Shown here: piece by piece, positions 3,489 to 60,380 of the stretch
Numbering within the stretch: the stretch's first letter is position 1
Layout of the letters: the number at the start of each line of letters is the position of its first letter
NCBI GenBank assembly: GCA_045655965.1
Contig: JAZOQH010000015.1
Span: 212-64,211, forward strand
Source: Bacteroidales bacterium
GTDB taxonomy: Bacteria; Bacteroidota; Bacteroidia; Bacteroidales; F082
Length of the DNA: 64,000 nt
Direction of reading: 5' to 3'
Notes under the pieces: generated by a model
The model's input: the letters and a program-made list of their open reading frames with translations, nothing else
Database searches by the model: none
Told to the model about the DNA's origin: nothing
Program-made: the position numbers and the translations under genes

Positions 3489-3496
3489 TAAAAAAA

Positions 3497-3566
3497 GACA
3501 ACAAGACTACAGGACTACAAGACAACAAGTTTTTTGATACAAGAAATTCAGAAACTCAGAAAATTT
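3497..3566. repeat. 8-nt arrays (gacaacaa/gactacag family, then aattcaga/aactcaga)
   Basis: gacaacaagactacaggactacaagacaacaag … aagaaattcagaaactcagaaaattt. Confidence 0.85.
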
Positions 3567-3568
3567 AA

Positions 3569-3620
3569 AGAGACGCTTCAATGCTTGTTTATTTTTAAGG
3601 AAACATTGAAACGTCTCTAC
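3569..3620 (-). repeat. palindromic element, GTAGAGACG…CGTCT family, copy 1
   Basis: The reverse complement gtagagacgtttcaatgtttccttaaaaataaacaagcattgaagcgtctct matches the copy at 49180-49230: the first 30 nt are identical and the rest is similar. It has a 14-bp stem. Confidence 0.85.
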
Positions 3621-5432: not shown

Positions 5433-5466
5433 CAGCGCAATATAGTATTTTAAATTTTAGGCAAAG

Positions 5467-5982
5467 ATGAGTAAAAACGCACTTACCTCGACCGACATTA
5501 TGGATCTTATTTCTGATTACAAATCGGAGATAAGAAAACTTAATGCAAAGATTTCATTTTGTGAGAGTAGAATATTAGAGTTGGAAGAAGCTTTGAACAC
5601 AAACAGAGTTTACACCACCTCTGAGAACTACATCAACTTTCCAAACAAATCAGGGCGACAAAGAAGAAGAGAAATAAATCCTCGTAAGCCTTATCCTCTT
5701 TCAGACTGGGATAAAATTATATTGGATATTATTTCAGAAAGCGGCAAAGCTCAGTTGAGCAAAGACATTTATGAAAAAGCTTTTGCGAAGTCAAAGGAAG
5801 TAGGTATCTTCATCGATGAGATTAAAAGCAAGGCGAAGATAAACCAATGTCTCGTCAAGTTAACCAACAGACGTAATGACCTCAAAAAGGTAAAATATGG
5901 CGGCCGCGGATTTGCTTATTGTCTTCCAGAATGGATTAACGAAAATGGTATTCTAGGCAAAGAATACATCAAATTCGAATAA
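5467..5982 (+). CDS. hypothetical protein (N-terminal coiled coil, basic C-terminal half)
   Basis: 171-aa ORF with a TATTTTTG box 35 nt upstream and a strong bidirectional terminator directly downstream. I recognise no family motif. Confidence 0.55.
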   Translation: MSKNALTSTDIMDLISDYKSEIRKLNAKISFCESRILELEEALNTNRVYTTSENYINFPNKSGRQRRREINPRKPYPLSDWDKIILDIISESGKAQLSKDIYEKAFAKSKEVGIFIDEIKSKAKINQCLVKLTNRRNDLKKVKYGGRGFAYCLPEWINENGILGKEYIKFE

Positions 5983-6001
5983 TTTTAATCTTATTATCGA
6001 C

Positions 6002-6037
6002 AAAAAAAGAGATGGACGATGTCCATCTCTTTTTTTT
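6002..6037. terminator. bidirectional rho-independent terminator
   Basis: aaaaaaagagatggac gat gtccatctctttttttt: a 10-bp stem flanked by an A-run and a T-run, between convergent genes. Confidence 0.85.
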
Positions 6038-15994: not shown

Positions 15995-17407
15995 ATGAAA
16001 AAACATTTACTTTCATTGTTATCTATTTTATTGATGACATTTGCTTTACAAGCACAAGACACAACTGAAAATGCAAATAAAAACAAGAAAGAAAAGATCT
16101 ATAATGAAAAAGGCGAACTCATCAAGAAAGGATGGAATTTCGGTCCGCTTCCAGTAGTAGGTTTCAACTCCGACCTCGGTTTCCAATATGGTGCATGCGT
16201 TGACATCTTCAATTACGGCGACGGCTCTCGTTATCCAAAGTTCGACTATAAGATGAACCTCGAAGTTTCAGCCTATACAAAAGGTTCTCTCAACTTACGT
16301 TTCTATGGTGATTATTACAACCTCATTCCTAATTCACGCCTTTTCGTTGACGCTGGATATTTCACCGACAAACGCTTCGAATTCTACGGTTTCAACGGAT
16401 ATGCATCTCCATACTATAACGATTTGTATGTGTTAAACCAACAGCCATTTGAAAGTTTCGATCCAGACTTCAACAGCATATTTTACAGAATGGACCGCAA
16501 ACAATTCAGATTCAACTCATGCTTACGCAGCAAATTCGGTTTCGGCGAACATTTCTATTATGGCGTAGGTCTCAGTTATTTCAACTATAATATGGGAAGA
16601 ATCAACATCCAAAACGAAGAATATTTATACGATCAACAAATGACATTGTTTGAATTATATCGCGAAAGCGGTCTCATCAGACCTAACGAAGCTGACGGCG
16701 GCAATGTAACACAATTGAAACTCGCTTTCATCTACGACTCCAAAAACCATGACAGCGACCCTACCAAAGGTGCATATTTTGAAGCAACAGTAACAGCTGC
16801 TCCAGACCTCATCGACGGCGACGGTTACAGCCACGCCACTTTCAACGCTGTATGGCAACAATATATTCCTGTCGTAAAGGAAAATCTTACATTTGCTTAT
16901 CGTCTTGTCACTCAAAACGTAATTGCTGGTGAGATTCCTTATTACGCAATGTTTAACTCAAACATGTTGTTCTATAAAAAAATGTCGACAGACGCTATGG
17001 GTGGTGCCAACTCAGTACGCGGCATCAACAGAAACAGAGTCATCGGCGCTGGTTATGCATGGCTCAACGCAGAACTTCGCTGGAAAGTTGCAGGTTTCCA
17101 ATTCATCAACCAAAACTGGAATATCGCTCTTAACCCATTCTTTGACGCTGGTATGGTTACACAAAGCTATCGTCTTGAAGAACAAAAAACAGCATGGGAA
17201 ACTATTGAAAACAAATACAATATCTCAGGCTACGAAGAAAACCTCATCTACAGCGGTGAAAAAGAAGGTCTTCACACTTCTGCAGGTTGCGGTTTGAAAC
17301 TCATTATGAACAGAAACTTCATCGTCTCAGCAGAAGCAGCTAAGTCTCTCGATGCAAGAGACGGAAAAGGCATGAAAGTCTATATCGGATTTAATTACCT
17401 GTTTTAA
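15995..17407 (+). CDS. Omp85/BamA-family outer-membrane beta-barrel protein (barrel only)
   Basis: Signal peptide MKKHLLSLLSILLMTFALQAQ and alternating beta-strand pattern. It has SVRGINRNRVIGAGYAWLNAELRWKV and a terminal aromatic residue (…YIGFNYLF). Confidence 0.65.
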   Translation: MKKHLLSLLSILLMTFALQAQDTTENANKNKKEKIYNEKGELIKKGWNFGPLPVVGFNSDLGFQYGACVDIFNYGDGSRYPKFDYKMNLEVSAYTKGSLNLRFYGDYYNLIPNSRLFVDAGYFTDKRFEFYGFNGYASPYYNDLYVLNQQPFESFDPDFNSIFYRMDRKQFRFNSCLRSKFGFGEHFYYGVGLSYFNYNMGRINIQNEEYLYDQQMTLFELYRESGLIRPNEADGGNVTQLKLAFIYDSKNHDSDPTKGAYFEATVTAAPDLIDGDGYSHATFNAVWQQYIPVVKENLTFAYRLVTQNVIAGEIPYYAMFNSNMLFYKKMSTDAMGGANSVRGINRNRVIGAGYAWLNAELRWKVAGFQFINQNWNIALNPFFDAGMVTQSYRLEEQKTAWETIENKYNISGYEENLIYSGEKEGLHTSAGCGLKLIMNRNFIVSAEAAKSLDARDGKGMKVYIGFNYLF

Positions 17408-17508
17408 TGACTAAAGACTAAAGGCAAAAGGCTAAAGGCAAAAGACAAAAGATAAAAGATAAGATAAAAGAACTTTAGTCATTAGTCTTTAGACTTTAGT
17501 CATTAAAG
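17408..17508. repeat. inverted 7-nt arrays (gactaaa/ggcaaaa… vs ctttagtc…) forming a long imperfect hairpin
   Basis: tgactaaagactaaagg…aaaagataaaagaa…ctttagtcattagtctttagactttagtca. Confidence 0.9.
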
Positions 17509-22338: not shown

Positions 22339-24768
22339 TTATTTTTTGTTAAGTCTGCAAATCTTTAACTCGAAATAGGTAAAGTCATCACCAAGCACAT
22401 CTCTCGCCGCCGTCAACGAAGGATCGCCTGTTTCCTCATAGTATTCGTTTATTATCTCATAATGCTTTTTACTTACGAAATCTTTGGCATCATAAAAACC
22501 GTTCTTCACTATCTCTATGATGTGATTTTCTATAGTGCTTCGCGACAGTCCTCTTCCTTTCATAATTTCTTCCATCGTAAAGTCTTCATCGAGAAGTTCC
22601 AAAGTCCGCATCACGCTGCTCGAGAGATTCATCTCCTTATTAGACTCTTCATCATCAAAAGCACACTTCTTGAAGCCCTGCGACTCCAATACTATATTAA
22701 TAATGTCAGCGCCGAAACTCTTGATACGTGTCGTTCCAAGTTTGGAAATCGACTTGAGTTCTTTTATCGTGACAGGTTTAAGTTCTGTGATTCTATTGAC
22801 GACAGTAGTAGGCAAGATCTGATGTTCTTCTTTTTCAAGTTCCAATGCCTTCTCATGACGCCATTTCAACAAGGCATTCAACAATGGCTTGTCTTTCTTA
22901 TCTACAGTCTTACCTTTCAGTTTCACCGACTTAAGATTCTCCGACTCCACGATTTTCTTGTTCTTCATCTCAAGATATTTATCCAAGATGAAACCGTCTT
23001 TCGCAATATGCAGACAAGCCGTCTTGACATAAAGAATCTCGCGTATCATATCAAGTACCGCCTTCACTGCAGCGTTGACATTTTTGTTATCAGTCTCCTG
23101 AATCGAATCGCTGATATTTTCCAAGTCGTTGAGTTTGTCGAAGAAATAAACCGACGCCTTCCTAATTCTTTCATCCAGATAAGAACTTGTTGTCTTGTCG
23201 TCTTGTTGTCTTGTTGACTTCACAATCGAATCCACTTGTCTAGCGAATCTCATCGCCACATCTATTATTTCTTCTCGGAAGTTTTTACGTATATCCGCTA
23301 TCTTATCCGCCGTCTCTTTCCCGAAGATATTGTCGTTCTCTCTCACCACCTTAGCGAGTTTATTGATTTGCATCTCCAGTTCATCGAAAGTGAAAAGGTC
23401 AATTATCGTCTGATGATGATATCTTGTCTCCTCATCGCGGAGTCTGTCTTCATCAGGTTCGAGAGAAGGAATCTTATCCACGAAAGTGTTTATCGTATTA
23501 TCGTTATACAAAACGTTATTAGAAATCTTCGCATTGAGCACCAGTCCTTTAAGAGAAGTGCAACGACTCAATGCCACATAGACCTGTCCATGAGCGAATG
23601 CCATCTCGGCATTGAGAACGACTTTCTCGAAGGTAAGGCCCTGACTCTTATGAATCGTTATCGCCCAAGCCGTCTTAAGCGGAATCTGAGTGAAGCTGCC
23701 TATTTCCTTCTCCTCTATCTCGTTAGTCTCTTCGTTGAGTGTATATTCGAAGTTCTGCCATTTCACAGGCATCACGTTTATCACATCATCATCGCATCTC
23801 ACCTTGATGCCTTCGTCTTTGTCGTACGCTATTATCTTGCCTATCTTTCCGTTATAATAAAGCTTCTCCGGCGAAGGGTCGTTCTTCACGAACATCACCT
23901 GCGCTCCCACTTTAAGTTCAAGCACTTCTTTCGTTGGATAAGCGTTTTCAGGGAATATGCCTGTTATCTCCGCTGTGAAAGTCAGCGTCTCGGAATCGAT
24001 AGCATTCAGTTTTTCATCATTTATTTCATCTGCCTGATAATTATGAGTCGTCAGCGTGATATATCCCTCGTTATCATCAGGTTTAAAATCAGGAATATAA
24101 CGAGAGTTTAATATCTGCAAGTTATTACTATCGATGCTGTTGTTTCTCACCTGATTGAGAATATCGATGAATTCGGTATCGTTCTGTCGATATATATGGT
24201 CGAGTTCCACGCAGATGTAAGGATTCTTCTGCAGCACACGGCTGTCGAAGAAATACACCGACTTATAATAATCCTGCAGCAGTTCCCATTCGTTCTGTTT
24301 TGCCACCGGCGCCAGCTGTTGTATATCGCCTATCATCAGGAGCTGCACTCCGCCGAAAGCCTTGTCGCTGCGACGCACTCTTCGCAACACGGCGTCGATA
24401 GCATCGAGGAGGTCGGCGCGCACCATACTTATCTCATCGATGACGAGGAGGTCGAGGCTGCGCATAATCTTCAGCTTCGTCCTGCTCAGTTTCATATTAG
24501 ATAAAAGCGACAACGACTGACCTTCTGGAACGATAGGCCCGAAAGGAAGCTGGAAGAACGAATGTATCGTCACGCCTCCCGCATTGATGGCAGCCACTCC
24601 AGTAGGAGCGACAATCACCATTCTTTTATAACTCTTGATAGCTAAATTCCTGAGGAAGGTGGTCTTGCCAGTGCCAGCCTTACCCGTCAAAAAGATATGA
24701 ACATCGGTGTTTTGCACAAACCTATTCAACATCTCAATCTTTTCATTCTTAAACACGTCTGTTTTCAT
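22339..24768 (-). CDS. PIF1/RecD-like SF1 DNA helicase with C-terminal HRDC-like and HTH regions
   Basis: Walker A FLTGKAGTGKTT, LLVIDEISMV, LLMIGDIQQLAPV, TIHKSQGLTF and YVALSRC. I prefer the ATG at 24768 (MKTDVFKNEK…), because the longest ORF runs into an upstream repeat array. Confidence 0.85.
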   Translation of the reverse strand: MKTDVFKNEKIEMLNRFVQNTDVHIFLTGKAGTGKTTFLRNLAIKSYKRMVIVAPTGVAAINAGGVTIHSFFQLPFGPIVPEGQSLSLLSNMKLSRTKLKIMRSLDLLVIDEISMVRADLLDAIDAVLRRVRRSDKAFGGVQLLMIGDIQQLAPVAKQNEWELLQDYYKSVYFFDSRVLQKNPYICVELDHIYRQNDTEFIDILNQVRNNSIDSNNLQILNSRYIPDFKPDDNEGYITLTTHNYQADEINDEKLNAIDSETLTFTAEITGIFPENAYPTKEVLELKVGAQVMFVKNDPSPEKLYYNGKIGKIIAYDKDEGIKVRCDDDVINVMPVKWQNFEYTLNEETNEIEEKEIGSFTQIPLKTAWAITIHKSQGLTFEKVVLNAEMAFAHGQVYVALSRCTSLKGLVLNAKISNNVLYNDNTINTFVDKIPSLEPDEDRLRDEETRYHHQTIIDLFTFDELEMQINKLAKVVRENDNIFGKETADKIADIRKNFREEIIDVAMRFARQVDSIVKSTRQQDDKTTSSYLDERIRKASVYFFDKLNDLENISDSIQETDNKNVNAAVKAVLDMIREILYVKTACLHIAKDGFILDKYLEMKNKKIVESENLKSVKLKGKTVDKKDKPLLNALLKWRHEKALELEKEEHQILPTTVVNRITELKPVTIKELKSISKLGTTRIKSFGADIINIVLESQGFKKCAFDDEESNKEMNLSSSVMRTLELLDEDFTMEEIMKGRGLSRSTIENHIIEIVKNGFYDAKDFVSKKHYEIINEYYEETGDPSLTAARDVLGDDFTYFELKICRLNKK
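23186..23217. repeat. 8-nt array (cttgttgt/cttgtcgt x4) inside the helicase CDS
   Basis: The sense strand reads gacaacaag/acgacaag words, translated …STRQQDDKTTSS…. Confidence 0.85.
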
Positions 24769-26531: not shown

Positions 26532-27425
26532 ATGAAGGCAAAACTATTGTTAATATTGATGACTTTATCTGTAACGATAAACCTCAATGCTCAGTCTTAT
26601 AAAGATTTATGGAATAATGTTAATAAAAATTTAGAAGACCGACTTCCTGAATCGGCGGAAGCGTTTCTTGATAAAGTTGAACAAAAAGCCATTGCCGAGA
26701 ACAATCAGAAAGAACTTCTGAAATCTTATCTGTATAGATTTAAAATAATAAATCAGAAAGATGAGAATCCGATAAAAGCCTCGATACAGTTCGCTGAAGA
26801 AAATATCGGCAGACTCCAAGAACCGGAAAAATCGATTTTTAATGTAGCAATTGCTTCTCTCTATGGAAGTTATCTTAATGAGAATTTCTATAAAATCAAC
26901 AATCAACAGATAATTGTCAACGGTGATGAGTTGGACATGGAATTCTGGGACAAAAAGACTTTTGAAAGAGTTATCGACAAATATTATGAAAACGCTCTTT
27001 CTGATATTGCAAGCCTTCAAAACACCGAATCAAAATCATATCAAGATATTTTGGCGATTGACGAGACCAAAACCAAATTCGATTACACCATAGAACCTAC
27101 TCTTTATGATTATGTATTGCATAAAATCATAAACCACCAAATCCGCAAGTCTTTAAATTGCATAGATTTATACCAAGATCTTATCAATTTTGACAAAAAG
27201 AACAATTATAATGACGCTGCGATATATAATGAGATTCATAAATTGAAATATGAATATGAAAACAATGACGATTATGAATCTTATATAAATTCCTTAATAA
27301 AAATTAAGAACGAAAACCTCGACAATCCTCTCGTCACATCCGTGATGGCGTTACAAGCCGAAGCGATTTTTGATAGACAACAGTCAACAGAATGTCGAAA
27401 GCAAAAACCTGGATGTTGTACTTGA
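26532..27425 (+). CDS. alpha-2-macroglobulin family protein, N-terminal fragment (frame A)
   Basis: 297-aa ORF with a signal peptide. It ends 55 nt after frame B of the next ORF opens. See the finding on the frameshift at 27367-27390. Confidence 0.6.
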   Translation: MKAKLLLILMTLSVTINLNAQSYKDLWNNVNKNLEDRLPESAEAFLDKVEQKAIAENNQKELLKSYLYRFKIINQKDENPIKASIQFAEENIGRLQEPEKSIFNVAIASLYGSYLNENFYKINNQQIIVNGDELDMEFWDKKTFERVIDKYYENALSDIASLQNTESKSYQDILAIDETKTKFDYTIEPTLYDYVLHKIINHQIRKSLNCIDLYQDLINFDKKNNYNDAAIYNEIHKLKYEYENNDDYESYINSLIKIKNENLDNPLVTSVMALQAEAIFDRQQSTECRKQKPGCCT

Positions 27426-30400
27426 GATTTGCGATGAAGCAATAAAATTATTTCCTAATAGTGTCGGTGCTTTACAATGTGAAACAATACGTTCCAATAT
27501 TTTAAGAAAAAATCTGCAATTAAAGATGTCGAGCGTGCATCTTCCAAATCATGACATCATAGTTAACATTTCTTACAGTAATTTAACAAATCCTCATTAT
27601 AGAATTTATAGACTAAGTCAAAATGAGTTGGATGAATTAGATGATAAATCAGCGATGGATATTGTAAAGACAATATTAAAGAAAAAACATATAGTTGAAA
27701 ACGAAATCGACATTCCAGAAAAGAATGATTATCAATCACATTCCATGAATATCACTCTGCCAAAGTTGGAATGCGGAATTTATTACATACTGGTTTCCAA
27801 TGATGATAAATTCTCAAATAAAATAGATAATCTACCAGCTTTTCATTCTTTCCAAGTCAGCAGACTTAGTTTTGTCACCACAAAAGAAAACAACGATTTC
27901 GTAGTCTATGTACTTGACAGAGAAAGCGGTCTGCCTGTAAAAGACGTAAATGTCAATATTTTTAAACGTTCTTACAATTATAACAAGAACAAATATGTCA
28001 ATACAACTATCAAAGATTTGACGACAGACGAAAACGGAATCGTTAAAGTCCCTAATACAAGTCAGAACGCATTTCATATCAACTTATTCAAGGACAACGA
28101 CATGCTTCTCTCAGATTCTCATTTCTATAATTATAAGAATGAAAATTCAGGAAGATTAATACAAGAAACGATATTCTTTACAGACAGAGCAATTTATCGT
28201 CCGGGACAGACTGTCTATTATAAAGGTGTGATTGTTAATAAAAATTCTGAGATAAATGAATTAGTCGTTAATGCAGAAACTGTAATTTACATTAAAGATT
28301 CAAACGGCGAAGAGATTAGTACACAAACATTTACAACAAACGAATTCGGTTCTTTCGACGGAAGTTTCGTCATCCCTGATAATTTATCTAACGGATTTTT
28401 CAAGATAAGCAATGTCACTGGTAGCATCTACGTAAAAGTTGAAGAATATAAACGTCCTACTTTTGAAATAACATTCAACGCTCCTGACAAATCATACAAA
28501 CTCAATGAAGAAGTAGAACTTAGCGGTTCAGTGAAAGCATACGCCGGATTCGGTCTCGATAATGTTAACTATAATTATACAATCGTAAGACGTGCTTATT
28601 TCCCATATCGTTTATGGTGGTTAGTCAATTATGACAACAATAAAAAACAGATTGCTTTTGGAGAAGGAACAACCGACGCAAATGGCAACTTCAATATCAA
28701 TTTCGAATTGCTTCCTGATAAGAATTTAAAAGACAGACTTCCTGTTTATGAATATCTTATAACAGTAAACGCTACCAACGCACAAGGCGAAAGCCAGACT
28801 AAAACATACACTATAAAAGCATCTGACATTGATTTGATTATTGATGTTAATAAAGATTATAAAAACGTCAGCATAGATAGTTTGAAACATATCTGCTTCA
28901 ATGTTAAAAATCTTAAAGAAAATCCTGTCGAAGCAAAAATCATCAGAAAGATTTATGAAGTTAAAGACGACAGTCAACAGACAACGGACAACAGACATTT
29001 GATATATGAAGATACCGTCAATGTCAAAGGAGAGTCTAAATTATTCCCAAATGTTAAAAAACTTATAGATAAAGGAAGATATGTCGTTGAATTGATTTCT
29101 GCCGACAATGAAAAGGCGATGACATCCATCGAATTGACAGTCATAGATTTTAAGAGCAACAAAATGCCTTATAATACAATGTGTATTTCTTACTATGACA
29201 AAGCGTCAGCACAACCTAATGACAATGTTAATTTTTATTTAGGAAGTTCTGCCAAAGATGTCAATGTTTATGTCATGATAAAAAATGGTGACGAGCTCAG
29301 ATATTACGAACGTAAGACAATAAATGATAAAGTCATAAAAATCAATTACAAAGTCAAAGAAGAAGACAGAGGAAATATTTCGTTCCAAGCATTCTTTGTT
29401 AAAGACAACACTATAAATATTGTAGAACATTATATCACAGAGCCTTACGATAACCTCGAATTAGACATAAAATTGGATGTTGTGAGAGACGACTTGCTTC
29501 CTGGCAGTGAAGAAACATGGAATCTCACCATCAAGGATTATAAGGACAAAGGCGTTGTCGCCAATCTTCTAGCAGGAATGTACGACGCTTCTTTGGATGT
29601 ATTCGCCGAAAATCATTGGTATTTCAACACAAAACCTAGCATCAAGACATCGACATCACCGCGAAGCGACGGAGGTTTCGACGATTTCTATTGCTTTACA
29701 TTTAATCAATATCCTAAGACTTACGAATTGTTTGTTTACTATTTATTGTCGGACATTGATTTGATACCTATCGCGAGATATACTTTTTCAGCACGAGATG
29801 TGATGCTGATGCCTGAGCGCACCAGAAATGCAATAGCTGCAAAAGTAGGCGGTGTAAATACAAATGAAGAAGAAGAGGCAGTTGAGTTATTTAGAGTAGC
29901 TGATGAAGATGTAACAGATAATTCTCAGCAAGAAGAAATGCAAAGTACAGAAAATCAAGAAATGAGCATAAGAGAAAACTTCAACGAGACGGCGTTCTTC
30001 TATCCTAACTTAATTACTAACGAAGATGGAAGTCTGACGTTTTCTTTCACCATGCCAGATGCCTTGACTCGCTGGAACTTGATGATGCTCGCTTATACCA
30101 AAGACTTGAAAGTCGGCACTTTGAACAAGACTTTCACCACATCGAAGCCTCTTATGATCATGAGTGATATGCCACGCTTCGTTTATGAAAACGATACTCT
30201 TTGGGTAGTAGCGAATGTGATAAAGACAACGGACAACAGTCAACAGTCAACAGATGATTGGCAAAAGACAAAAGACAAAAGACAAAAGTCGTTTGCTAAG
30301 TTAGAGATTTTCGATGCGTTGACGATGAAACCTCTTGATTTGATTCTCTCTGAACAGGAAATTGCCATCGATGAGATTGCTGCTGGAAACAGTAAATCTG

Positions 30401-32298
30401 TGAGATGGAAGGTAGCATTAAAAAATCAAATCAATACAAATTTGTTGGCTATGCGTTTCAGCGTTTCGTCAGAGGACTTCTCTGATGCAGAGCAACACAT
30501 TCTTCCTGTTTTAAGCAATGAGGTCTTCATGACAGAGACATATCCTTTGTTAATAAGAGAAAATTCTGAAAAGACATTCGACTTCGATTTCCAAAATGAG
30601 AACGAAAGAAACTATGGATTGACATTGAATGTATGCGCTAATCCTGTATGGTATGCGATACAGTCGTTGCCTTATCTTGCACAAGAAACAGGACAATATG
30701 CCGATGCTGCATTCAACATTTTCTATGCTAACAGTCTCGCCTCATATATCGCGAATAACATTCCTAACTTATTGGATTATATCAAGAAATGGGAATTAGA
30801 GACACCTGATGCATTGATGTCGGCACTTCAGAAAGATGAGAATCTGAAAGCCATCATGTTACAAGAGACACCTTGGGTAATGGAAGCGAAATCGGAGGCA
30901 GAACAAATATCAATGCTCGCCAATTTATTCGACATTAACGCATTACGCAACAAAACCGATGAGGCGTTAAAACTCATCAAAGAAAAACAAAGCGTCAACG
31001 GCGGATGGTCGTGGTTCCCTAACATGCCGGAAAGTACTTTCATAACTCAATATATATTAGGTGGATTCGGTCGTCTTTATAAGATGGATGTAATAAATTC
31101 CTTGACACCAAGTCAGCAGGAATATTCCGACATCATCACCAAAAACGCCATCGAATATTTATGCAAGGGTATAATAAAAGATTATGACTTATACAAAGAT
31201 TATAAGAACATCTCTTATTTAAACATCAATGAATTATATGCATTGAGTTTCTTCAACTTCAATGAAGATTTAAAATACAAGAACGCCAAAGACTTCTTTA
31301 TCAATCAATTGAAAGAAAACTGGCACGACTACAATTTCGGCGCGCAAGCAAAAATAGCCTTGATATTATATCGCAATGGTGATAAAAACATCGCTCAGCT
31401 GATAATGAAATCACTGAAAGAAAGAGCTAAAAAGAACGAGACTCTTGGCATGTATTGGAGTTCTAAAGTCAGTGAACATGTTGTTATTATGGAAGCATTC
31501 AAGGAAATAAATCCTGACGAGAAACTTCTTAACGACATGAAAATCTGGTTATTAAATAACAAGCGTACCAATATGTGGGAAAATGCTCAATCGACAGTAG
31601 ATGCGATTTATGCTTTGGTTTTTGATAAGACTACAAGACCACAAGACTACAAGACCACAAGTGTGGAGGTGATGAGACATGGCAATACAGGATTAGCTAT
31701 TGATATTAAAAATGATAATAATTCTTCTGATTTTATGAATCAATATTACTGGGATTCCGAGTCGATGAAAGACATTAAAGATATCAAAATCAATAATGAA
31801 TCCAACAATCTCATTTGGGGCGGTTTATTCCGTCAGTATTTTGTCTCTCTCGATGAGGTAAGAAAACACGAATCGCCATTGAATGTAGAGAGAAATATAT
31901 ATGTCGAGCGAATCAATGAAGAAGGCACTTATCTTGTTCCTATTGAAAACGAAGACATTAAAGTCGGAGACAAGATTGTAGTAAATCTGAATATTGAAAG
32001 TTCCCAAGATATGGAGTTCGTCTTTTTGAAAGACATGAGAGCAGCTTGCCTCGAGCCAGTCGAACAAATGTCAAGATACAGATATCAAGACGGAATGTTA
32101 TATTATCAAAGCAACAGCGACACCTTCATGGGATTCTATTTCGACAGACTACCGAAAGGCAAACATCAGGTAAGTTATTCGATGTTCGTGACAAAAGAAG
32201 GCGACTTCAGCAATGGATACGCTTTGATACAATGCATGTACTCACCTGAGTTCTCGGCATATTCAGAAGGAATGAGAATTAAAGTGATTAGTTTATAG
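27370..32298 (+). CDS. alpha-2-macroglobulin family protein, main body (frame B; no independent start evident)
   Basis: 1642-aa ORF with repeated MG/Ig-like domains (…FTDRAIYRPGQTVYYKG…, …EEYKRPTFE…), NFNETAFFYPNL, an alpha-helical TED-like region and a C-terminal domain (FLKDMRAACLEPVEQ…). Where a CxEQ thioester would normally sit I see LAQETGQYAD, so it may lack a thioester. Confidence 0.8.
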   Translation: MIDNSQQNVESKNLDVVLEICDEAIKLFPNSVGALQCETIRSNILRKNLQLKMSSVHLPNHDIIVNISYSNLTNPHYRIYRLSQNELDELDDKSAMDIVKTILKKKHIVENEIDIPEKNDYQSHSMNITLPKLECGIYYILVSNDDKFSNKIDNLPAFHSFQVSRLSFVTTKENNDFVVYVLDRESGLPVKDVNVNIFKRSYNYNKNKYVNTTIKDLTTDENGIVKVPNTSQNAFHINLFKDNDMLLSDSHFYNYKNENSGRLIQETIFFTDRAIYRPGQTVYYKGVIVNKNSEINELVVNAETVIYIKDSNGEEISTQTFTTNEFGSFDGSFVIPDNLSNGFFKISNVTGSIYVKVEEYKRPTFEITFNAPDKSYKLNEEVELSGSVKAYAGFGLDNVNYNYTIVRRAYFPYRLWWLVNYDNNKKQIAFGEGTTDANGNFNINFELLPDKNLKDRLPVYEYLITVNATNAQGESQTKTYTIKASDIDLIIDVNKDYKNVSIDSLKHICFNVKNLKENPVEAKIIRKIYEVKDDSQQTTDNRHLIYEDTVNVKGESKLFPNVKKLIDKGRYVVELISADNEKAMTSIELTVIDFKSNKMPYNTMCISYYDKASAQPNDNVNFYLGSSAKDVNVYVMIKNGDELRYYERKTINDKVIKINYKVKEEDRGNISFQAFFVKDNTINIVEHYITEPYDNLELDIKLDVVRDDLLPGSEETWNLTIKDYKDKGVVANLLAGMYDASLDVFAENHWYFNTKPSIKTSTSPRSDGGFDDFYCFTFNQYPKTYELFVYYLLSDIDLIPIARYTFSARDVMLMPERTRNAIAAKVGGVNTNEEEEAVELFRVADEDVTDNSQQEEMQSTENQEMSIRENFNETAFFYPNLITNEDGSLTFSFTMPDALTRWNLMMLAYTKDLKVGTLNKTFTTSKPLMIMSDMPRFVYENDTLWVVANVIKTTDNSQQSTDDWQKTKDKRQKSFAKLEIFDALTMKPLDLILSEQEIAIDEIAAGNSKSVRWKVALKNQINTNLLAMRFSVSSEDFSDAEQHILPVLSNEVFMTETYPLLIRENSEKTFDFDFQNENERNYGLTLNVCANPVWYAIQSLPYLAQETGQYADAAFNIFYANSLASYIANNIPNLLDYIKKWELETPDALMSALQKDENLKAIMLQETPWVMEAKSEAEQISMLANLFDINALRNKTDEALKLIKEKQSVNGGWSWFPNMPESTFITQYILGGFGRLYKMDVINSLTPSQQEYSDIITKNAIEYLCKGIIKDYDLYKDYKNISYLNINELYALSFFNFNEDLKYKNAKDFFINQLKENWHDYNFGAQAKIALILYRNGDKNIAQLIMKSLKERAKKNETLGMYWSSKVSEHVVIMEAFKEINPDEKLLNDMKIWLLNNKRTNMWENAQSTVDAIYALVFDKTTRPQDYKTTSVEVMRHGNTGLAIDIKNDNNSSDFMNQYYWDSESMKDIKDIKINNESNNLIWGGLFRQYFVSLDEVRKHESPLNVERNIYVERINEEGTYLVPIENEDIKVGDKIVVNLNIESSQDMEFVFLKDMRAACLEPVEQMSRYRYQDGMLYYQSNSDTFMGFYFDRLPKGKHQVSYSMFVTKEGDFSNGYALIQCMYSPEFSAYSEGMRIKVISL
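27376..27390. repeat. gacaacag/tcaacag word at the alpha-2-macroglobulin frameshift site
   Basis: gacaacagtcaacag, the same word as at 28966 and 30225. Confidence 0.8.
28966..28997. repeat. 8-nt array inside the alpha-2-macroglobulin CDS
   Basis: gacgacagtcaacagacaacggacaacagaca, translated DDSQQTTDNRH. Confidence 0.85.
30225..30291. repeat. composite 8-nt plus 7-nt array inside the alpha-2-macroglobulin CDS
   Basis: gacaacggacaacagtcaacagtcaacagatgattggcaaaagacaaaagacaaaagacaaaagtcg, translated TTDNSQQSTDDWQKTKDKRQKS. Confidence 0.9.
31627..31662. repeat. 8-nt array (actacaag/accacaag x4) inside the alpha-2-macroglobulin CDS
   Basis: Translated KTTRPQDYKTTS. Confidence 0.9.
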
Positions 32299-32374
32299 TT
32301 GAGAGTGTAGAGTAGTTGAAAGTTTAAAAATTCTTTTGAGATTCTGAGGTTTTGAGATTCTGAGTTTTTAAAAG
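32299..32374. repeat. arrays between convergent genes, extending into the acyltransferase 3' end
   Basis: ttgagagtgtagagtagttgaaagttt … gagattct gaggtttt gagattct gagttttt. They encode the acyltransferase tail …KTQNLKTSESQKNF*. Confidence 0.85.
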
Positions 32375-33604
32375 TCTCTTTCTTATCGGTTCGTCATAAA
32401 GCTTAAGACAAGCGTATGCCAATGCGATGTTTGTCGCCATGACGAGCAACACGACCTGCCATGTCTCGCCGAGTGAATATAACTTATTGTCGATGAGCCA
32501 TGAGTAGAAGAGATACATCACTGGATAATGCACTATATATAAAGGATAAGAGATGTCGCCGAGGAACTTGCAAACCTTTGTTGAGAATTTGCTTGTGATG
32601 TTTCCAGCTGCGCCGAACCAAACGATGAAAGGGAAAACCAATATAATACAAGCCAGTTCGTAGATTCCGTTAAGACTTATGCTTCCAGTTTTTGTGATAT
32701 AAGGCATAGAGAATAAAACAAACATCACAATTATAGCAATCCAGAAAATGTTGTTTGTAATTATTTTAGACGCCATATTATTTTTAGACGCCACAGGGGT
32801 GACGTCTCTACATGTTGTCTTGTAGTCTTGTAGTCTTGTAGTCTTATTAAAATTCCGAGCCAACAACATACCCAATGAAAATGGAAACAACATTCTCAGG
32901 AGGCCGCCGAAGAAATTGACGGTGTCGAGAGTCCAGCCGATGCCAATCATATCGTAGCCAGAGATATCGAAGACTACGAAGGTAATCCATAGTATTCCAG
33001 TTACCCCGACCAAAGCAGCGAGTTTCTTATTGGATAATTTTCTAATGAAGAGAGCGTATAAGATATTACCGATATATTCGAAGAAAAGCGACCAGCTCGG
33101 ACCGTTGAGAGGATACATCTCGCCATTGCCGCGCACGTCGTAAGGAGCGCCTGGATAAGCAGGGATGAGAAACATAGCGAGTAAAAACGCTATCATAGTC
33201 CAATGGATAGGCATCTGAGTGCCGTCCCATCTCACGCCACCTTGGATGAGATACGTAATCAATCCGATGAGAGCGCCCATCACCACCATAGGCTGTAATC
33301 TAATCAGTCGACGCTTGAAGAAACTTCCTATCGTAAGACCTCCACTTGTAGTCTTGTCGTCATGTAGTCTTGTAGTCTTCCATCTATCATCATAAGCATA
33401 ACTGATGACAAAACCAGACAACATGAAGAAGAAATCAACGCCGAGATGACCGTGGTTGAAAGTTTCTATAGATGTTCCGCCAGCGAAGGCAAATCCTTCA
33501 AAGACGTGATACCACAACACCATGAGAGCCGCTGCTCCACGCAACCCGTCAAGAATGAGATAATGCTGTTTTGTATCTAAAGTACTATATTTCTGTGATG
33601 ACAT
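32324..33604 (-). CDS. acyltransferase family 3 (OafA-like) integral membrane protein
   Basis: 426 aa. The N-terminus LILDGLRGAAALMVLWYHV…GHLGVDFFFMLSGFVI is the Acyl_transf_3 signature, and there are about 10 TM helices. It holds two hydrophilic repeat-derived inserts. Confidence 0.85.
   Translation of the reverse strand: MSSQKYSTLDTKQHYLILDGLRGAAALMVLWYHVFEGFAFAGGTSIETFNHGHLGVDFFFMLSGFVISYAYDDRWKTTRLHDDKTTSGGLTIGSFFKRRLIRLQPMVVMGALIGLITYLIQGGVRWDGTQMPIHWTMIAFLLAMFLIPAYPGAPYDVRGNGEMYPLNGPSWSLFFEYIGNILYALFIRKLSNKKLAALVGVTGILWITFVVFDISGYDMIGIGWTLDTVNFFGGLLRMLFPFSLGMLLARNFNKTTRLQDYKTTCRDVTPVASKNNMASKIITNNIFWIAIIVMFVLFSMPYITKTGSISLNGIYELACIILVFPFIVWFGAAGNITSKFSTKVCKFLGDISYPLYIVHYPVMYLFYSWLIDNKLYSLGETWQVVLLVMATNIALAYACLKLYDEPIRKRLLKTQNLKTSESQKNF
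32767..32845. repeat. palindromic element (copy 4) plus 8-nt array inside the acyltransferase CDS
   Basis: tagacgccatattatttttagacgccacaggggtgacgtctctac followed by cttgtagt x3. Translated (minus strand) NKTTRLQDYKTTCRDVTPVASKNNMASK. Confidence 0.85.
33345..33380. repeat. 8-nt array (cttgtagt/cttgtcgt) inside the acyltransferase CDS
   Basis: Translated (minus strand) …KTTRLHDDKTTSGG…. Confidence 0.85.
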
Positions 33605-37149: not shown

Positions 37150-37307
37150 GAATGTGGAATTAGGAATTGAGGAGTTAGGAATTGAGGTAATGTAATAACT
37201 TTATTGTTGACTGCAGGAATTCTTTTTTCAAAGACGCCACATTTTAGAACTTTAGAATTTTAGAATTTGAATTCTAGAGTTCTAGAGTTCTAGAGTTCTA
37301 GAATTCT
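37136..37307. repeat. arrays (aattagga/attgagga; tttagaat/ttctagag x4) after the S8 peptidase stop
   Basis: Seen directly. The S8 stop codon lies in the first array. Confidence 0.9.
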
Positions 37308-37413
37308 CCCCTGCGTTAGGGATTGGAGCGGCATCCTTTTTTCGCGAAGGCGGAGACGAAGCGGAAAAAGATATAGCGGAAAGCCCGACGGCTTGCCGGA
37401 ACGCCCAGAAAAG

Positions 37414-37486: not shown

Positions 37487-37542
37487 TAGACGCATCAATT
37501 ACATATTATTTATTTTTATGGTGTAATTTGATACGTCTCTAC
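37487..37542 (-). repeat. palindromic element, GTAGAGACG…CGTCT family, copy 3 (divergent)
   Basis: tagacgcatcaattacatattatttatttttatggtgtaatttgatacgtctctac. The stem is agacgcatcaaattaca-like with an AT-rich loop. Confidence 0.7.
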
Positions 37543-37671: not shown

Positions 37672-40600
37672 ATGGATTACAATTTTAATGAAGTAGAAAA
37701 GAAATGGCAAGAATATTGGCGCGACAATAATATCTATAAAGTTGATATTGACAAGAATAAGCCAAAGTTTTATATCTTAGACATGTTCCCATATCCATCA
37801 GGAGCAGGTCTTCATGTGGGTCACCCTCTCGGTTATATAGCATCTGACATCTATGCTCGTTACAAACGTCTCAAAGGCTTTAACGTCCTTCACCCAATGG
37901 GTTACGACGCTTACGGTCTCCCAGCAGAGCAATATGCTATCCAAACCGGCACTCACCCTGCAATAACAACAGAGAAGAACATCAATCGTTATCGCGAACA
38001 AATGGATAAGATTGGTTTCTGCTACGACTGGGACCGCGAGGTACGCACCAGCGACCCTAATTATTACAAATGGACACAGTGGACTTTCATCCAGCTTTTC
38101 AATTCTTATTATTGTAACCAAGCTAAGAAGGCTCTTCCTATCGCTGAACTCGTCAAGATTTTCGAACAAAAAGGTTCAGAAGGTTTGAACGCTGCATGCA
38201 GCAAACCGCTCTCATTCACAGCAGAGGAATGGAAAGCCATGAGCGAGAAAGAGCAACAAGAAATCTTGATGAACTATCGCCTCGCTTACTTGGCAGACAC
38301 TATGGTTAACTGGTGTCCAGAACTCGGCACAGTACTCGCCAACGACGAAGTAGCCGACGGTCTCTCAGTCCGCGGCGGTCACCCTGTAGTACGTAAGACC
38401 ATGAAACAATGGTTGCTCCGTATCACAGCTTACGCAGAACGTCTCCTCGAAGGTCTCGACACCATCGAATGGAGCGAGTCAATCAAAGAAGTACAACGCA
38501 ACTGGATCGGCAAGTCGATGGGTGCATCATTATTCTTCGACATCGCTGATAAAGACATCAATATAGAAGTGTTCACCACACGTGCCGACACTCTCTTCGG
38601 AGCAAGTTTCATGGTGTTGGCTCCTGAACACGAAATGATAAGCAGCCTCGTCACTGAAGAACAACGTGCTGCTGTTGAAGAATACGTCACATGGGCTAAG
38701 AACCGCTCAGAACGTGAACGTATGGCAGAAGTGAAGAAAGTATCAGGCGTATTCACCGGTGCTTACGGCATCAACCCATTCACCGGCGCAAGAATACCAA
38801 TCTGGGTAGCTGACTACGTACTCATGGGCTACGGCACAGGCGCTATCATGGCAGTTCCTGCTCACGACAGCCGCGACTTCGCTTTCGCTCGTCACTTCGA
38901 CCTCCCTATCATCCAAGTCGTCGCTAAACCTGGCGAAGAGCCATCAGATGCTTCTCAATGGACAGAGTCATTCGACGCTAAAGAAGGCGTGATGGTCAAC
39001 TCTGAGTTCCTCAACGGCCTCACAGTGAAAGAAGCTATCGCAACAATGATTCAAAAGGTAGAAGAAAAAGGCATCGGCAAAGGCAAGACCAACTACCGTC
39101 TCCGCGACGCTATCTTCAGCCGTCAACGTTATTGGGGCGAGCCATTCCCAATCTATTATAAAGACGGAATGCCTTACGCTATCGACGAAAGCAGACTCCC
39201 TCTCGAGTTGCCTCCTATCGATGCATACAAACCAACAGAAACAGGCGAACCTCCATTGGCACGCGCTAAGAACTGGACAACAGAAGACGGTTGCCCTCTC
39301 GAAACAAACACAATGCCTGGCTTCGCTGGTTCAAGCGGCTACTACCTCCGCTATATGGATCCTCAAAACAATAACGAATTCATCAGCAAAGAAGCTAACG
39401 ACTATTGGCAACAAGTCGACTTATATATCGGCGGCGCCGAACACGGAACAGGTCACCTTATCTACAGCCGTTTCTGGAATAAGTTCTTATTCGACCTCGG
39501 CGTGATCTGCAAAGACGAACCATTCAAGAAGATGATCAACCAAGGTATGATCCAAGGCCGTACAAGCTTCGTATATCGCGTCAACTTCGAAAAGATGGCA
39601 GAATATAAAGCTTGGGAAGTCATCAAAGACAACAAACTCGGAGTCAAGTTCGTGAAAGACTTCAAGGTTGGTCACCGTAAGTTCGACTTTTTCTGCCAAG
39701 AAAAGAATTTAATAATAGAAATCAAGAAAGTGTCATCACTCGAAAAAGTAGCTGACGCTTACGAAAATATAGCTAAAGACTTAGGTTGCAAGATATTGCT
39801 CATCCCTATCCGTCAGGTCCTCATCGATGAAGACTTCACTGTTGTAAAACAAAAAATCCAAGACCTCATCGACGGTAAAGACGTTCCTGCATTTGAAGAT
39901 GTTGAAATGCTCGACGCACCACGTCTCTACGTTTCAAAGAATATCCCTGGAAGAGAATTCTACAGCGACCCTATCCGCGTCGACATCAGCATGGTCCACA
40001 ACGATATCCTCGACACAGAAGAATTCAAACAATGGCGTGACGACCTCAAAGACTCTAAGTTCATCTTCGAACATGACAAAGACGGCAACCCTATCTACGT
40101 CTGCGGCTGGGAAGTTGAAAAGATGTCTAAGTCAAAATTCAACGTACAAAATCCTGACGACCTCGTAGCAAAATACGGCGCCGACACATTGAGACTTTAT
40201 GAAATGTTCCTCGGGCCTCTCGAGCAATCAAAACCATGGGACACTCAAGGTATAGAAGGCGTATATCGTTTCATCCGTAAGTTCTGGAGATTATACACAG
40301 ACGAAAACAACGAGTTCTCATTCAGCGACGAGCCAGCAACAAAAGAAGAGTTGAAGTCATTACATAAACTCATCAAGAAAGAAGAAGACGATATCGAACG
40401 TATCTCTTTCAACACCGTCGTTTCTGCTTTCATGATCTGCGTCAACGAACTCACAGACCTCAAGTGCAACAAACGCGAAATCCTTGAGCCTCTCGCTATC
40501 ATGGTATCGCCTTACGCTCCTCACCTCGCTGAAGAGTTATGGCATCAAATGGGTCATGAAGACAGCGTAGTGACACAGAAATTCCCAGAATTCGTAGAAA

Positions 40601-40806
40601 GCTACGTCGTTGAAAACAACTTCACATATCCAGTATCTATCAACGGCAAGAAACGCTTCGACTTGGAATTGCCTATCACATTAACTCCAGCAGAGATAGA
40701 AAAAGCAGCTATCGAGACACCGGAAGCAGCAAAATGGATCGGCGACAAGAGCATCAAGAAAGTCGTTGTAGTTCCAAAGAAGATTATCAATATCGTAATA
40801 GGATAA
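37672..40806 (+). CDS. leuS: leucyl-tRNA synthetase, unusually long (1044 aa)
   Basis: HIGH motif (HVGHPLGY) and KMSKS at 40120-40134, a CP1 editing domain, and a LeuRS-typical N-terminus ([14 protein letters not shown]). It contains an extra insert of about 110 aa at 39583-39921. Confidence 0.95.
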
Positions 40807-49179: not shown

Positions 49180-49230
49180 GTAGAGACGTTTCAATGTTTC
49201 CTTAAAAATTAATACACATTGAAGCGTCTT
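49180..49230 (+). repeat. palindromic element, GTAGAGACG…CGTCT family, copy 2
   Basis: gtagagacgtttcaatgtttccttaaaaattaatacacattgaagcgtctt. It lies 3' of CDS 48453..49172, in the same orientation relative to the upstream gene as copy 1. Confidence 0.85.
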
Positions 49231-57077: not shown

Positions 57078-57250
57078 TTTGAAATTCAGAATCTCAAAAT
57101 CTCAGAACCTCAGATTTTTTTCTGGGGTTCTTTTTTTTAAATCTCAGAAATTCAGAATCTCAAAAACTCAGAACCTCAGATTTTTTGAAGTCCTGAGATT
57201 CTGAGTTTTTTATTTCTAAAATTCTAGAGTTCTAAATTTCTAGATTTCTC
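57078..57250. repeat. arrays (aattcaga/atctcaaa/atctcaga/acctcaga; ctgagatt; ttctagag/ttctaaat) between nhaA and the GH110-like gene
   Basis: Seen directly. The last 8 codons of the GH110-like ORF (EKSRNLEL*) are encoded by the array. Confidence 0.9.
57101..57138. terminator. bidirectional hairpin module (gaacctcaga…tctggggttc), copy 2
   Basis: The reverse complement aaaaaaaagaaccccagaaaaaaatctgaggttctgag matches 40939-40977 except for an indel of about 2 nt. Confidence 0.6.
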
Positions 57251-60317: not shown

Positions 60318-60380
60318 TAATTAGAAATGTGAAATTAGGAATTAGGAATTAAAATTAAATTCTCGTTCCTAATTCCTAAT
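60318..60380. repeat. inverted arrays (aattagga x3 … ttcctaat x2)
   Basis: Seen directly after the sdaA stop. Confidence 0.85.

Follow-up and report, generated by a model that had tools for sequence, protein, structure and literature searches.

A GTAG-tagged REP and an 8-nt tandem array lie in frame within a loop of an acyltransferase-3 gene in gut Bacteroidales

Results

The window analyzed here is a stretch of 64,000 nucleotides (nt) from an uncultured ruminant-gut Bacteroidales bacterium (contig JAZOQH010000015.1). At 32324..33604 on the minus strand it carries an intact gene for a 426-residue membrane acyltransferase of the acyltransferase-3 (AT3) family, and a palindromic repeat and an 8-nt tandem array lie in frame inside this gene. 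The assignment to AT3, already proposed in a first-pass annotation made from the letters alone, was confirmed by Pfam, in which Acyl_transf_3 (PF01757) matched residues 18-399 with nearly its whole profile (E=3.6e-35). The motifs by which AT3 proteins are defined, R-x10-H in transmembrane helix (TMH) 1 and RXXR at the start of TMH3 (PMC9833829), were both present, as R22/H33 and R99-L-I-R102, and the protein belongs to this family. Ten hydrophobic segments could be placed by hydropathy, and K/R-rich segments were located at residues 71-99, 188-192, 250-278, 338-347 and 403-426. Based on hydropathy, the positive-inside rule and the published position of RXXR on the cytoplasmic face of TMH3 (PMC9833829), the three repeat-bearing parts of the protein, namely the loop between TMH2 and TMH3 (loop 1), the loop between TMH6 and TMH7 (loop 2) and the C-terminal tail, probably face the cytoplasm. 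No solved AT3 structure was found by sequence search.

The ratio of nonsynonymous to synonymous substitution rates (dN/dS), calculated outside the loops against 11 orthologues, was 0.06-0.18. Values this low mean that the host gene is kept by purifying selection and has not become a pseudogene. All of the 120 listed homologue clusters were intact open reading frames (ORFs) as well, and pseudogene status, which the first-pass annotation had named as a result that would overturn its reading, was thereby ruled out. A database record exists for an identical protein (P0001, a cluster with 36 members), and the same loop-2 DNA was found in L001, an independent assembly.

The plus strand at 32767-32811 reads tagacgccatattatttttagacgccacaggggtgacgtctctac, and cttgtagt occurs three times exactly at 32819-32842. 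The minus-strand frame stays open throughout the gene, as had been described, and residues 253-280 read NKTTRLQDYKTTCRDVTPVASKNNMASK within the wider stretch ...ARNFNKTTRLQDYKTTCRDVTPVASKNNMASKIITNNIFW... On the coding strand, an array of AAGACTAC is followed in frame by the palindrome GTAGAGACGTCACCCCTGTGGCGTCT, a repetitive extragenic palindrome (REP), and then by an 18-nt duplication. The array (32813..32845, minus strand) consists of three copies of AAGACTAC plus AAGACAAC, is read KTTRLQDYKTT in loop 2, and was scored by Tandem Repeats Finder (TRF) at period 8, 4.1 copies and 96% matches. The REP (32786..32811, minus strand) has a GTAG head at 32808-32811, a 9-bp stem with one G.T pair and a 4-nt loop, and is read (C)RDVTPVAS. 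The duplication (32760..32793, minus strand; plus-strand unit ATTATTTTTAGACGCCAT, 1.9 copies in TRF) repeats the 3' arm GCGTCT together with a spacer, is the source of a 'second' tagacgcc, adds KNNMAS to the protein, and is missing from the closest alleles (L082/P0004 and others). Peptides spanning the junctions of the insert include TTCRDVTPVASK and NNMASK. The segment is hydrophilic, with a mean Kyte-Doolittle value of -0.81 versus +0.40 for the whole protein, and hydrophobic helices stand on either side of it, in line with the earlier description. Two further arrays were found in the same gene on the minus strand. One, at 33345..33379, belongs to the same family as the loop-2 array and is read KTTRLHDDKTTS in loop 1; the other, at 32334..32369 (plus strand TTTTGAGATTCTGAGG, period 8/16), is read KTQNLKTSESQK in the C-terminal tail.

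The insert is more than a chance arrangement. The 16-mer CTTGTAGTCTTGTAGT, a doubled 8-mer, matched 14 times with up to 2 mismatches versus 0.02 expected, and ACGTCTCTAC matched 11 times with up to 1 mismatch versus 2.3 expected, five of the matches being exact. The coding-strand hairpin GTAG-AGACGTCAC-CCCT-GTGGCGTCT folded at -7.4 kcal/mol (z=-4.45), and none of 200 shuffled sequences folded as well; on the opposite strand the G.T pair is replaced by a C.A mismatch. No promoter-like or terminator-like site was detected at the insert. No Rfam family matched the palindrome, and the sole Rfam matches in the window were tRNA and Flavo-1.

The segment is an insertion relative to orthologues. One genome per species was scanned and 80 orthologous loci were obtained, the closest of which came from uncultured Bacteroidales metagenome-assembled genomes (MAGs) of yak, cattle, sheep and buffalo gut. 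Between the anchors FPFSLGM and LFSxP, all 24 anchor-matching loci (Bacteroides, Phocaeicola, Alistipes, Alloprevotella and related MAGs) have 24 residues versus 50 in the window. Loop 2 has 8 residues in those orthologues (ARNF-KPVKVKG-IFW type) and 34 in the window, a gain of 26 codons, and loop 1, after YAYDDRW, has 7-12 residues in most loci versus 19 in the window. A conserved segment of the same length in orthologues devoid of the repeat, the other result that the first-pass annotation had expected to count against an insertion, was not present in any of these 24 loci.

The loops of AT3 turn over rapidly. Among the 120 closest homologue clusters (69-100% identity, 377-471 residues), the membrane core is almost invariant and the two loops and the C-terminal tail are hypervariable, with length differences that are always multiples of three bases. 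The loops and tail contain translated arrays of 8-mers (KTTRLQDYKTTS, KSPRHRDTETPS), 7-mers (NVKSQKSKVEG, QQSTVNSQQSTVNS) and a 6-mer (SESVSESVS), and the palindrome occurs there as RDVTPVAS alone or as 24-nt head-to-tail runs (QNVTPVAS, two to four times). The DNA arrays at the same site vary among sister species (GTCAAAA, GCCAACA, CAAGACAA, AGACGCCG). Close alleles differ in steps of 18 or 24 nt: P0007, P0010 and P0008 lack exactly 24 nt, i.e. three 8-mers, some alleles lack exactly 24 nt at the loop-1 array (KTTSGG), and the C-terminal tail of other alleles ends RWLKTND. In L081 (94% identity), TTTTGTCCATGTTTT stands where other alleles have the 24-nt palindrome; no repeat of the REP-free stretch TGTTTTTGTCCATGTTTTAAA was found in the window. 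A tree of the conserved columns shows a patchy distribution of the palindrome, even inside a clade of >93% identity, and re-assortment of loop and tail variants. Every lineage of the clade, down to the basal ones, has arrays in loop 2, and the palindrome is present only in some, so the array at this site is older than the REP and the two were put together on the spot. The earlier notion of a complete palindrome-plus-array module inserted as one unit is contradicted by this distribution. Two other palindromic elements, SAVPEPVEGKVRRFDKLSD and LGCPVTEPVEVTIAFDRLRHH, are also translated in loops 1 and 2 of AT3 homologues (P0042, P0055, P0062, P0097, P0104 and others).

The palindrome is a dispersed repeat with sharp ends. 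A scan of gut metagenomes with the 22-nt core yielded 76 copies in 62 contigs, 71 of which have GTAG directly before the core and 61 of which (about 80%) lie outside long ORFs. Across 73 distinct contexts, positions -4 to -1 (GTAG) are conserved at 97-99%, a weaker T precedes GTAG, CA follows GCGTCT, and nothing is conserved beyond; the element is a discrete unit of 26-29 nt with unrelated flanks. The tetranucleotide GT[AG]G within 0-2 nt 5' of a hairpin, a basal stem of 7-20 bp with a loop of 2-5 nt (here 9 bp and 4 nt), dispersed and mostly extragenic copies, and a transposase gene flanked by the repeat are the marks of a GTAG-tagged REP with a cognate REP-associated tyrosine transposase (RAYT) (PMC3733652, PMC6006769, PMC2817692). 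The element is assigned to this class because it has all of them. The copy in the AT3 gene is a singleton. Other copies occur in head-to-tail clusters or as inverted doublets (REPIN/BIME-like), the latter upstream of the RAYT gene of L107, in the clusters of L144 and in one allele of a U32 peptidase gene (L149).

Copies adjoining 7/8-nt arrays numbered 6/71 under strict and 13-23/71 under looser thresholds, versus 1-3% of random 50-mers, a comparison confounded by the mostly intergenic location of both elements. REP plus array is therefore a frequent and not an obligatory association. Within the window, one short-form copy and three long-form copies of the palindrome were counted. The long-form elements are intergenic and have the head GTAGAGACGT and the tail GCGTCT in common, with inner stems that are longer and mutually complementary, and they are read as putative long-form relatives of the REP. 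The element at 3570..3620 (minus strand; z=-5.41) consists of GTAGAGACGT, stem TTCAATG, a 20-nt loop, CATTGAA and GCGTCTC and is flanked by arrays; that at 37488..37542 (minus strand; z=-4.04), likewise flanked by arrays, has a different, complementary inner stem; and that at 49180..49229 (plus strand; z=-4.37) is nearly identical to the first. The architecture that the first-pass annotation had seen both in this gene and between genes holds to the extent that elements with the same ends adjoin arrays in intergenic DNA, and fails as a fixed pairing of the two parts.

Two observations touch on the origin of single copies and arrays. An exact 22-nt core with no GTAG was found at 3717-3738 of L091, a quite different contig, within a GC-rich ORF of 904 residues where it is read TDVTPVAS; this copy may be a chance match (roughly 0.06 expected in a collection of this size) or the result of transfer. 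Some 8-mer arrays directly 5' of REPs (GAGACGCC, GAGACACC; L116, L145, L006, L088) resemble the REP arm GAGACGTC / AGACGCCA, a likeness that makes slippage of such an arm a possible source of some arrays.

REP copies also lie in frame in other genes. Of the 76 copies, 15 are in long ORFs, and 13 of these 15 are in the frame nGT AGA GAC..., read xDVTPVAS. The hosts include a TonB-dependent receptor, an ABC ATPase, a U32 peptidase, a RibD_C protein, a GH29 fucosidase and both AT3 loops, and the host ORFs are intact, with Pfam domains on either side of the REP. In the GH29 fucosidase the REP lies between the PA14 and C-terminal domains. The REP of the ABC ATPase gene is followed by a fourfold array of GGAATTCA, a second intragenic combination of REP and array, and the TonB receptor gene (L084) shows a reiterated 3' arm like that of the window, with KNDNMAS in place of KNNMAS. 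Four alleles were found at one site of the U32 peptidase (L147, L121, L148, L149; proteins about 90% identical): with no REP (ETFVRPETNAI), with a forward REP (VCRDVTPVASNVI), with a reverse REP (DATGVTSLPV), and with a forward-plus-reverse dimer (L149).

The REP is linked to a RAYT gene on two contigs. With an Escherichia coli RAYT sequence as the tblastn query, weak matches were obtained on two contigs that carry the REP. The candidate of L107 (ORF 5433-6002, 189 residues) matched NCBIfam NF047646, 'REP-associated tyrosine transposase', with E=7.5e-15 and 55 bits, and that of L144 (ORF 1959-2492, 177 residues) matched the same family with E=1.3e-9 and 38 bits. The ORFs contain the motifs PNHVHLL (HUH), WQ and HYIDNN (Y). 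Exact REPs, identical to the copy in the AT3 gene and including inverted doublets, stand on both sides of each ORF, which is the arrangement of a REPtron. The family has 668 homologues at E<=1e-10 in Bacteroidales and Paludibacteraceae MAGs, and the JGI name for it is 'REP element-mobilizing transposase RayT'. Scans of 879 kb of DNA with the HUH...Y motif pattern gave no match because the Y motif here is YIDNNV and not YIxxNP. Bearing on mobility, the REP is polymorphic in presence/absence and in orientation among alleles that are about 90% identical, and it is probably moved by this RAYT.

Discussion

These results suggested, with high probability, that a loop of a functional AT3 gained 26 codons in frame and in this lineage specifically, that these codons come from two kinds of repetitive DNA native to the genome, and that they are tolerated with no specific function. 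The array of AAGACTAC belongs to the 7/8-nt arrays that occupy almost all intergenic regions of this Bacteroidales lineage, and slippage probably lengthens and shortens it; within genes, survival would be limited to stop-free orientations and to lengths that are multiples of three. The 26-nt GTAG-tagged REP would be a miniature non-autonomous element that relies for its spread on a REP-associated tyrosine (HUH/Y1) transposase, which acts on hairpins in single-stranded DNA. It may have landed beside the pre-existing array, after which its 3' arm would have been reiterated once to give the 18-nt duplication. Selection would have purged variants that break the frame or bring in a stop, and the remainder would be drift. 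The encoded peptide, presumably neutral, would then lengthen the loop by a hydrophilic stretch that serves no specific function and that a permissive loop tolerates.

Several points weigh against this account. The NF047646 scores of the two transposase candidates (55 and 38 bits) are under the curated cut-off of 80, and the Pfam Y1_Tnp score is 22.4 bits versus a cut-off of 23. There is no RAYT gene within the 64-kb window, and the linkage of REP and RAYT comes from the L107 and L144 contigs and not from the genome of the window. No clean empty site was found in AT3 (L081 vs L082) or in the U32 peptidase (L147 vs L121). In both genes the REP-free allele carries another short palindromic stretch of about the same length, which makes the event look like replacement and not like simple insertion. 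RDVTPVAS is the reading of the REP at about 8 independent sites, even though 3-4 of its 6 frames are open, and neutrality alone does not explain this bias. The repeated reiteration of the 3' arm in unrelated genes, with spacers of 15-24 nt, also fits the simple picture poorly. AlphaFold with an alignment of 30 sequences gave a mean predicted local distance difference test (pLDDT) of 48, too poor for placing the loop, and actual translation of the insert is presumed.

A rather unlikely extension of this account is that, in this ruminant-gut clade, REPs and 7/8-nt arrays home to short palindromes or arrays already present in permissive cytoplasmic loops, take their place, and persist nearly always in the RDVTPVAS frame. 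If this were true, the homing rule would suggest replacement by a mechanism that targets hairpins, or else selection for the encoded peptide; no REP/RAYT system has been described with either, and the AT3 loops would be a natural diversity-generating site in a surface-modifying enzyme.

An adaptive role of the hypervariable cytoplasmic loops and tail, in which repeat variation or an mRNA hairpin tunes activity, partner binding, translation rate or membrane insertion of the surface-modifying enzyme, is considered unlikely. Among the 120 homologues, the two loops and the tail have been hit repeatedly by at least 3 palindrome families and more than 6 array families. The single reading frame noted above and the sense strand, which forms the better hairpin with its G.U pair instead of a C.A mismatch, also speak for such a role. 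However, the same elements occur in unrelated housekeeping genes and mostly in intergenic DNA, the loop content is unconserved even among alleles that are >93% identical, stem-breaking changes such as RDVTPMAS occur, and in all other genera the ancestral enzyme does its work with a loop of 8 residues.

It is very unlikely that the array forms a contingency locus, at which gain or loss of 8-nt units would switch the acyltransferase off and on and give phase variation of surface acylation. An 8-nt unit inside the coding sequence (CDS) of a surface-modifying enzyme is the classical signature of such a locus, the copy number of the array changes between strains, and a neighbouring alpha-2-macroglobulin (A2M)-like gene is split by a 1-nt length difference in a heptamer-derived stretch. 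On the other hand, the tract has only 3-4 imperfect units in place of the long perfect tract of a phase-variable gene. The array differences between alleles all amount to 24 nt, i.e. three units, and single-unit, frame-shifting alleles were not seen among alleles from protein searches, which would miss frameshifted ones. The same arrays are present in PIF1 helicase, A2M and radical-SAM (HemN-like) genes, which are not phase-variable targets, and there the arrays are conserved between strains.

Origin of the loop in situ by local duplication, with a coincidental likeness to intergenic elements, is highly improbable: the 18-nt duplication and the arrays are local events and no clean empty site was found, but an identical 26-nt sequence occurs in 73 flanking contexts with sharp boundaries and flanks a transposase gene. 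A decaying pseudogene or an assembly artefact of repeats is scarcely credible, for although the window comes from a MAG, in which repeats can misassemble, and the neighbouring A2M-like gene is split, the identical protein P0001, the same loop-2 DNA in L001, the full-length Pfam match and the low dN/dS all stand against it.

Read as an insertion of a REP beside an array, the segment can be compared with known systems. The closest are GTAG-tagged REPs and their transposases, also termed TnpA_REP (Nunvar 2010, PMC2817692). As in GTAG REPs, an unpaired 5' GTAG directly precedes the 9-bp stem with its G.T pair and 4-nt loop, and the dispersed copies are mostly extragenic, either alone or arranged as inverted doublets or head-to-tail clusters. 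As in RAYT systems, the repeat stands on both sides of a HUH/Y1 transposase gene. A number of copies sit in frame inside genes, like the GTAG or CGTC REPs of Opitutus terrae, Thauera and others (Di Nocera 2013, PMC3733652). GTAG repeats have been reported for Proteobacteria, Cyanobacteria, Chloroflexi and the PVC group, with Bacteroidetes not among them (Di Nocera 2013, PMC3733652), and Bacteroidetes are known to carry RAYT genes, of subclasses 2.4 and 2.6 (Quentin 2018, PMC6006769). Differently from known RAYTs, the tyrosine motif here is YI(D/N)NN(V/I) and not YIxNNP, and the scores are under the curated family cut-offs. The close physical association with 7/8-nt tandem arrays, and the replacement in place of an empty site in REP-free alleles, also set the element apart from known GTAG REPs.

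The first-pass annotation had likened the insert to Rickettsia palindromic elements (RPEs). The likeness holds for how the element works: as summarised for RPEs (PMC3733652, PMC1779305), it is a palindromic repeat that is dispersed, mostly in intergenic DNA, and also lies in frame in many unrelated functional genes, to which it adds a hydrophilic surface segment. It does not extend to family membership, since RPE-1 is longer and confined to Rickettsia, RPE-4 and RPE-6 are of the CGTC type, none of the RPEs is related in sequence to the element described here, and the 26-nt length and the host phylum differ. The GTAG tag and the RAYT linkage place the element with the REPs, and the organism is a free-living gut anaerobe with an associated transposase, unlike the host of RPEs. 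The accompanying statement that no equivalent was known in Bacteroidota stands in so far as no description of these arrays, or of in-frame or translated REPs, was found in the literature for Bacteroidales, and has to be qualified by the intragenic REPs of other phyla (PMC3733652) and the RAYTs of Bacteroidetes (PMC6006769). In-frame palindromic repeats are already known as RPEs and as intragenic GTAG/CGTC REPs, and the REP in Bacteroidales is a well-supported further case.

Cyanobacterial short tandemly repeated repetitive sequences are among the heptamer-type arrays comparable with those found here. Like long simple sequence repeats (SSRs) of 5-11 nt and heptamer arrays (Mrazek 2007, as cited in PMC4679880; PMC4692102), the arrays have about 4 units, a period of 7-8, many unit sequences and a mostly intergenic location, and sometimes form inverted pairs. 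Unlike known SSR arrays, they are common in CDSs too, with 3 or 4.5 units and the frame kept, and one 8-mer family, read KTTRxQDxKTTS, occupies four coding positions within 64 kb. With phase-variable contingency loci the arrays share a repeat unit, not divisible by three, that lies within the CDS of a surface-modifying enzyme; they differ from such loci in the short and imperfect tract, in the in-frame length variants, the only ones seen, and in the presence of the same arrays in housekeeping genes.

GTAG-type REP/RAYT systems and RPE-like translated palindromes are extended by this work to uncultured gut Bacteroidales. The natural series of alleles (none, forward, reverse, dimer and tandem) is unusually complete and could be used to follow how REPs enter and leave DNA. 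Repeat-derived segments in MAG proteins, such as KTTRLQDYKTTS, RDVTPVAS and SAVPEPVEGK...FDKLSD, can also mislead gene callers, the definition of domain boundaries, clustering at fixed identity and metaproteomic searches.

Other repeats in the window

A total of 46 arrays of period 7/8 were counted in the window, 26 of them in the 4,960 intergenic bases and 14 inside CDSs. The 8-mer family AAGACnAC occupies five sites in the 64 kb (3495-3529, 23186-23220, 31627-31661, 32813-32845 and 33345-33379), four of which lie in genes, namely those for a PIF1-like helicase and an A2M-like protein and, twice, AT3. Most of these arrays have about 4.4 copies (4.1 in the AT3 loop-2 array), the coding ones read K(T/S)TRxxDxKTT(S/C), and those of the helicase and A2M genes are common to the window and L146. 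At 57136-57236, 17405-17491 and 60334-60380, an intergenic 7/8-nt array is followed by its own inverted array, so that long imperfect hairpins stand between genes, an arrangement often seen.

The A2M-like gene is one ORF of 1949 residues in L146 and is split in the window into 26532-27425 and 27370-32298 on the plus strand, with 79 nt between conserved anchors versus 78 in L146. A heptamer-derived stretch (GACAACAGTCAACAG, about 27376-27392) holds the extra base, which is either a frameshift or a sequencing error.

At 39866-39930, within the leucyl-tRNA synthetase gene (37672-40806), GTAAAGACGT and ACGTCTCTAC are 10-nt inverted arms separated by 45 nt; antisense to the gene and with the head and tail of the REP family, they may be an in-frame long-form element. 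An isolated half-site, AGACGCCACA, equal to the right arm of the REP in the AT3 gene, lies at 37234-37243 directly before an 8-nt array and has no partner arm. In the long, array-rich intergenic region before the leucyl-tRNA synthetase gene, the Rfam small RNA Flavo-1 was detected at 37304-37394 on the plus strand with 52 bits against a gathering score of 42.

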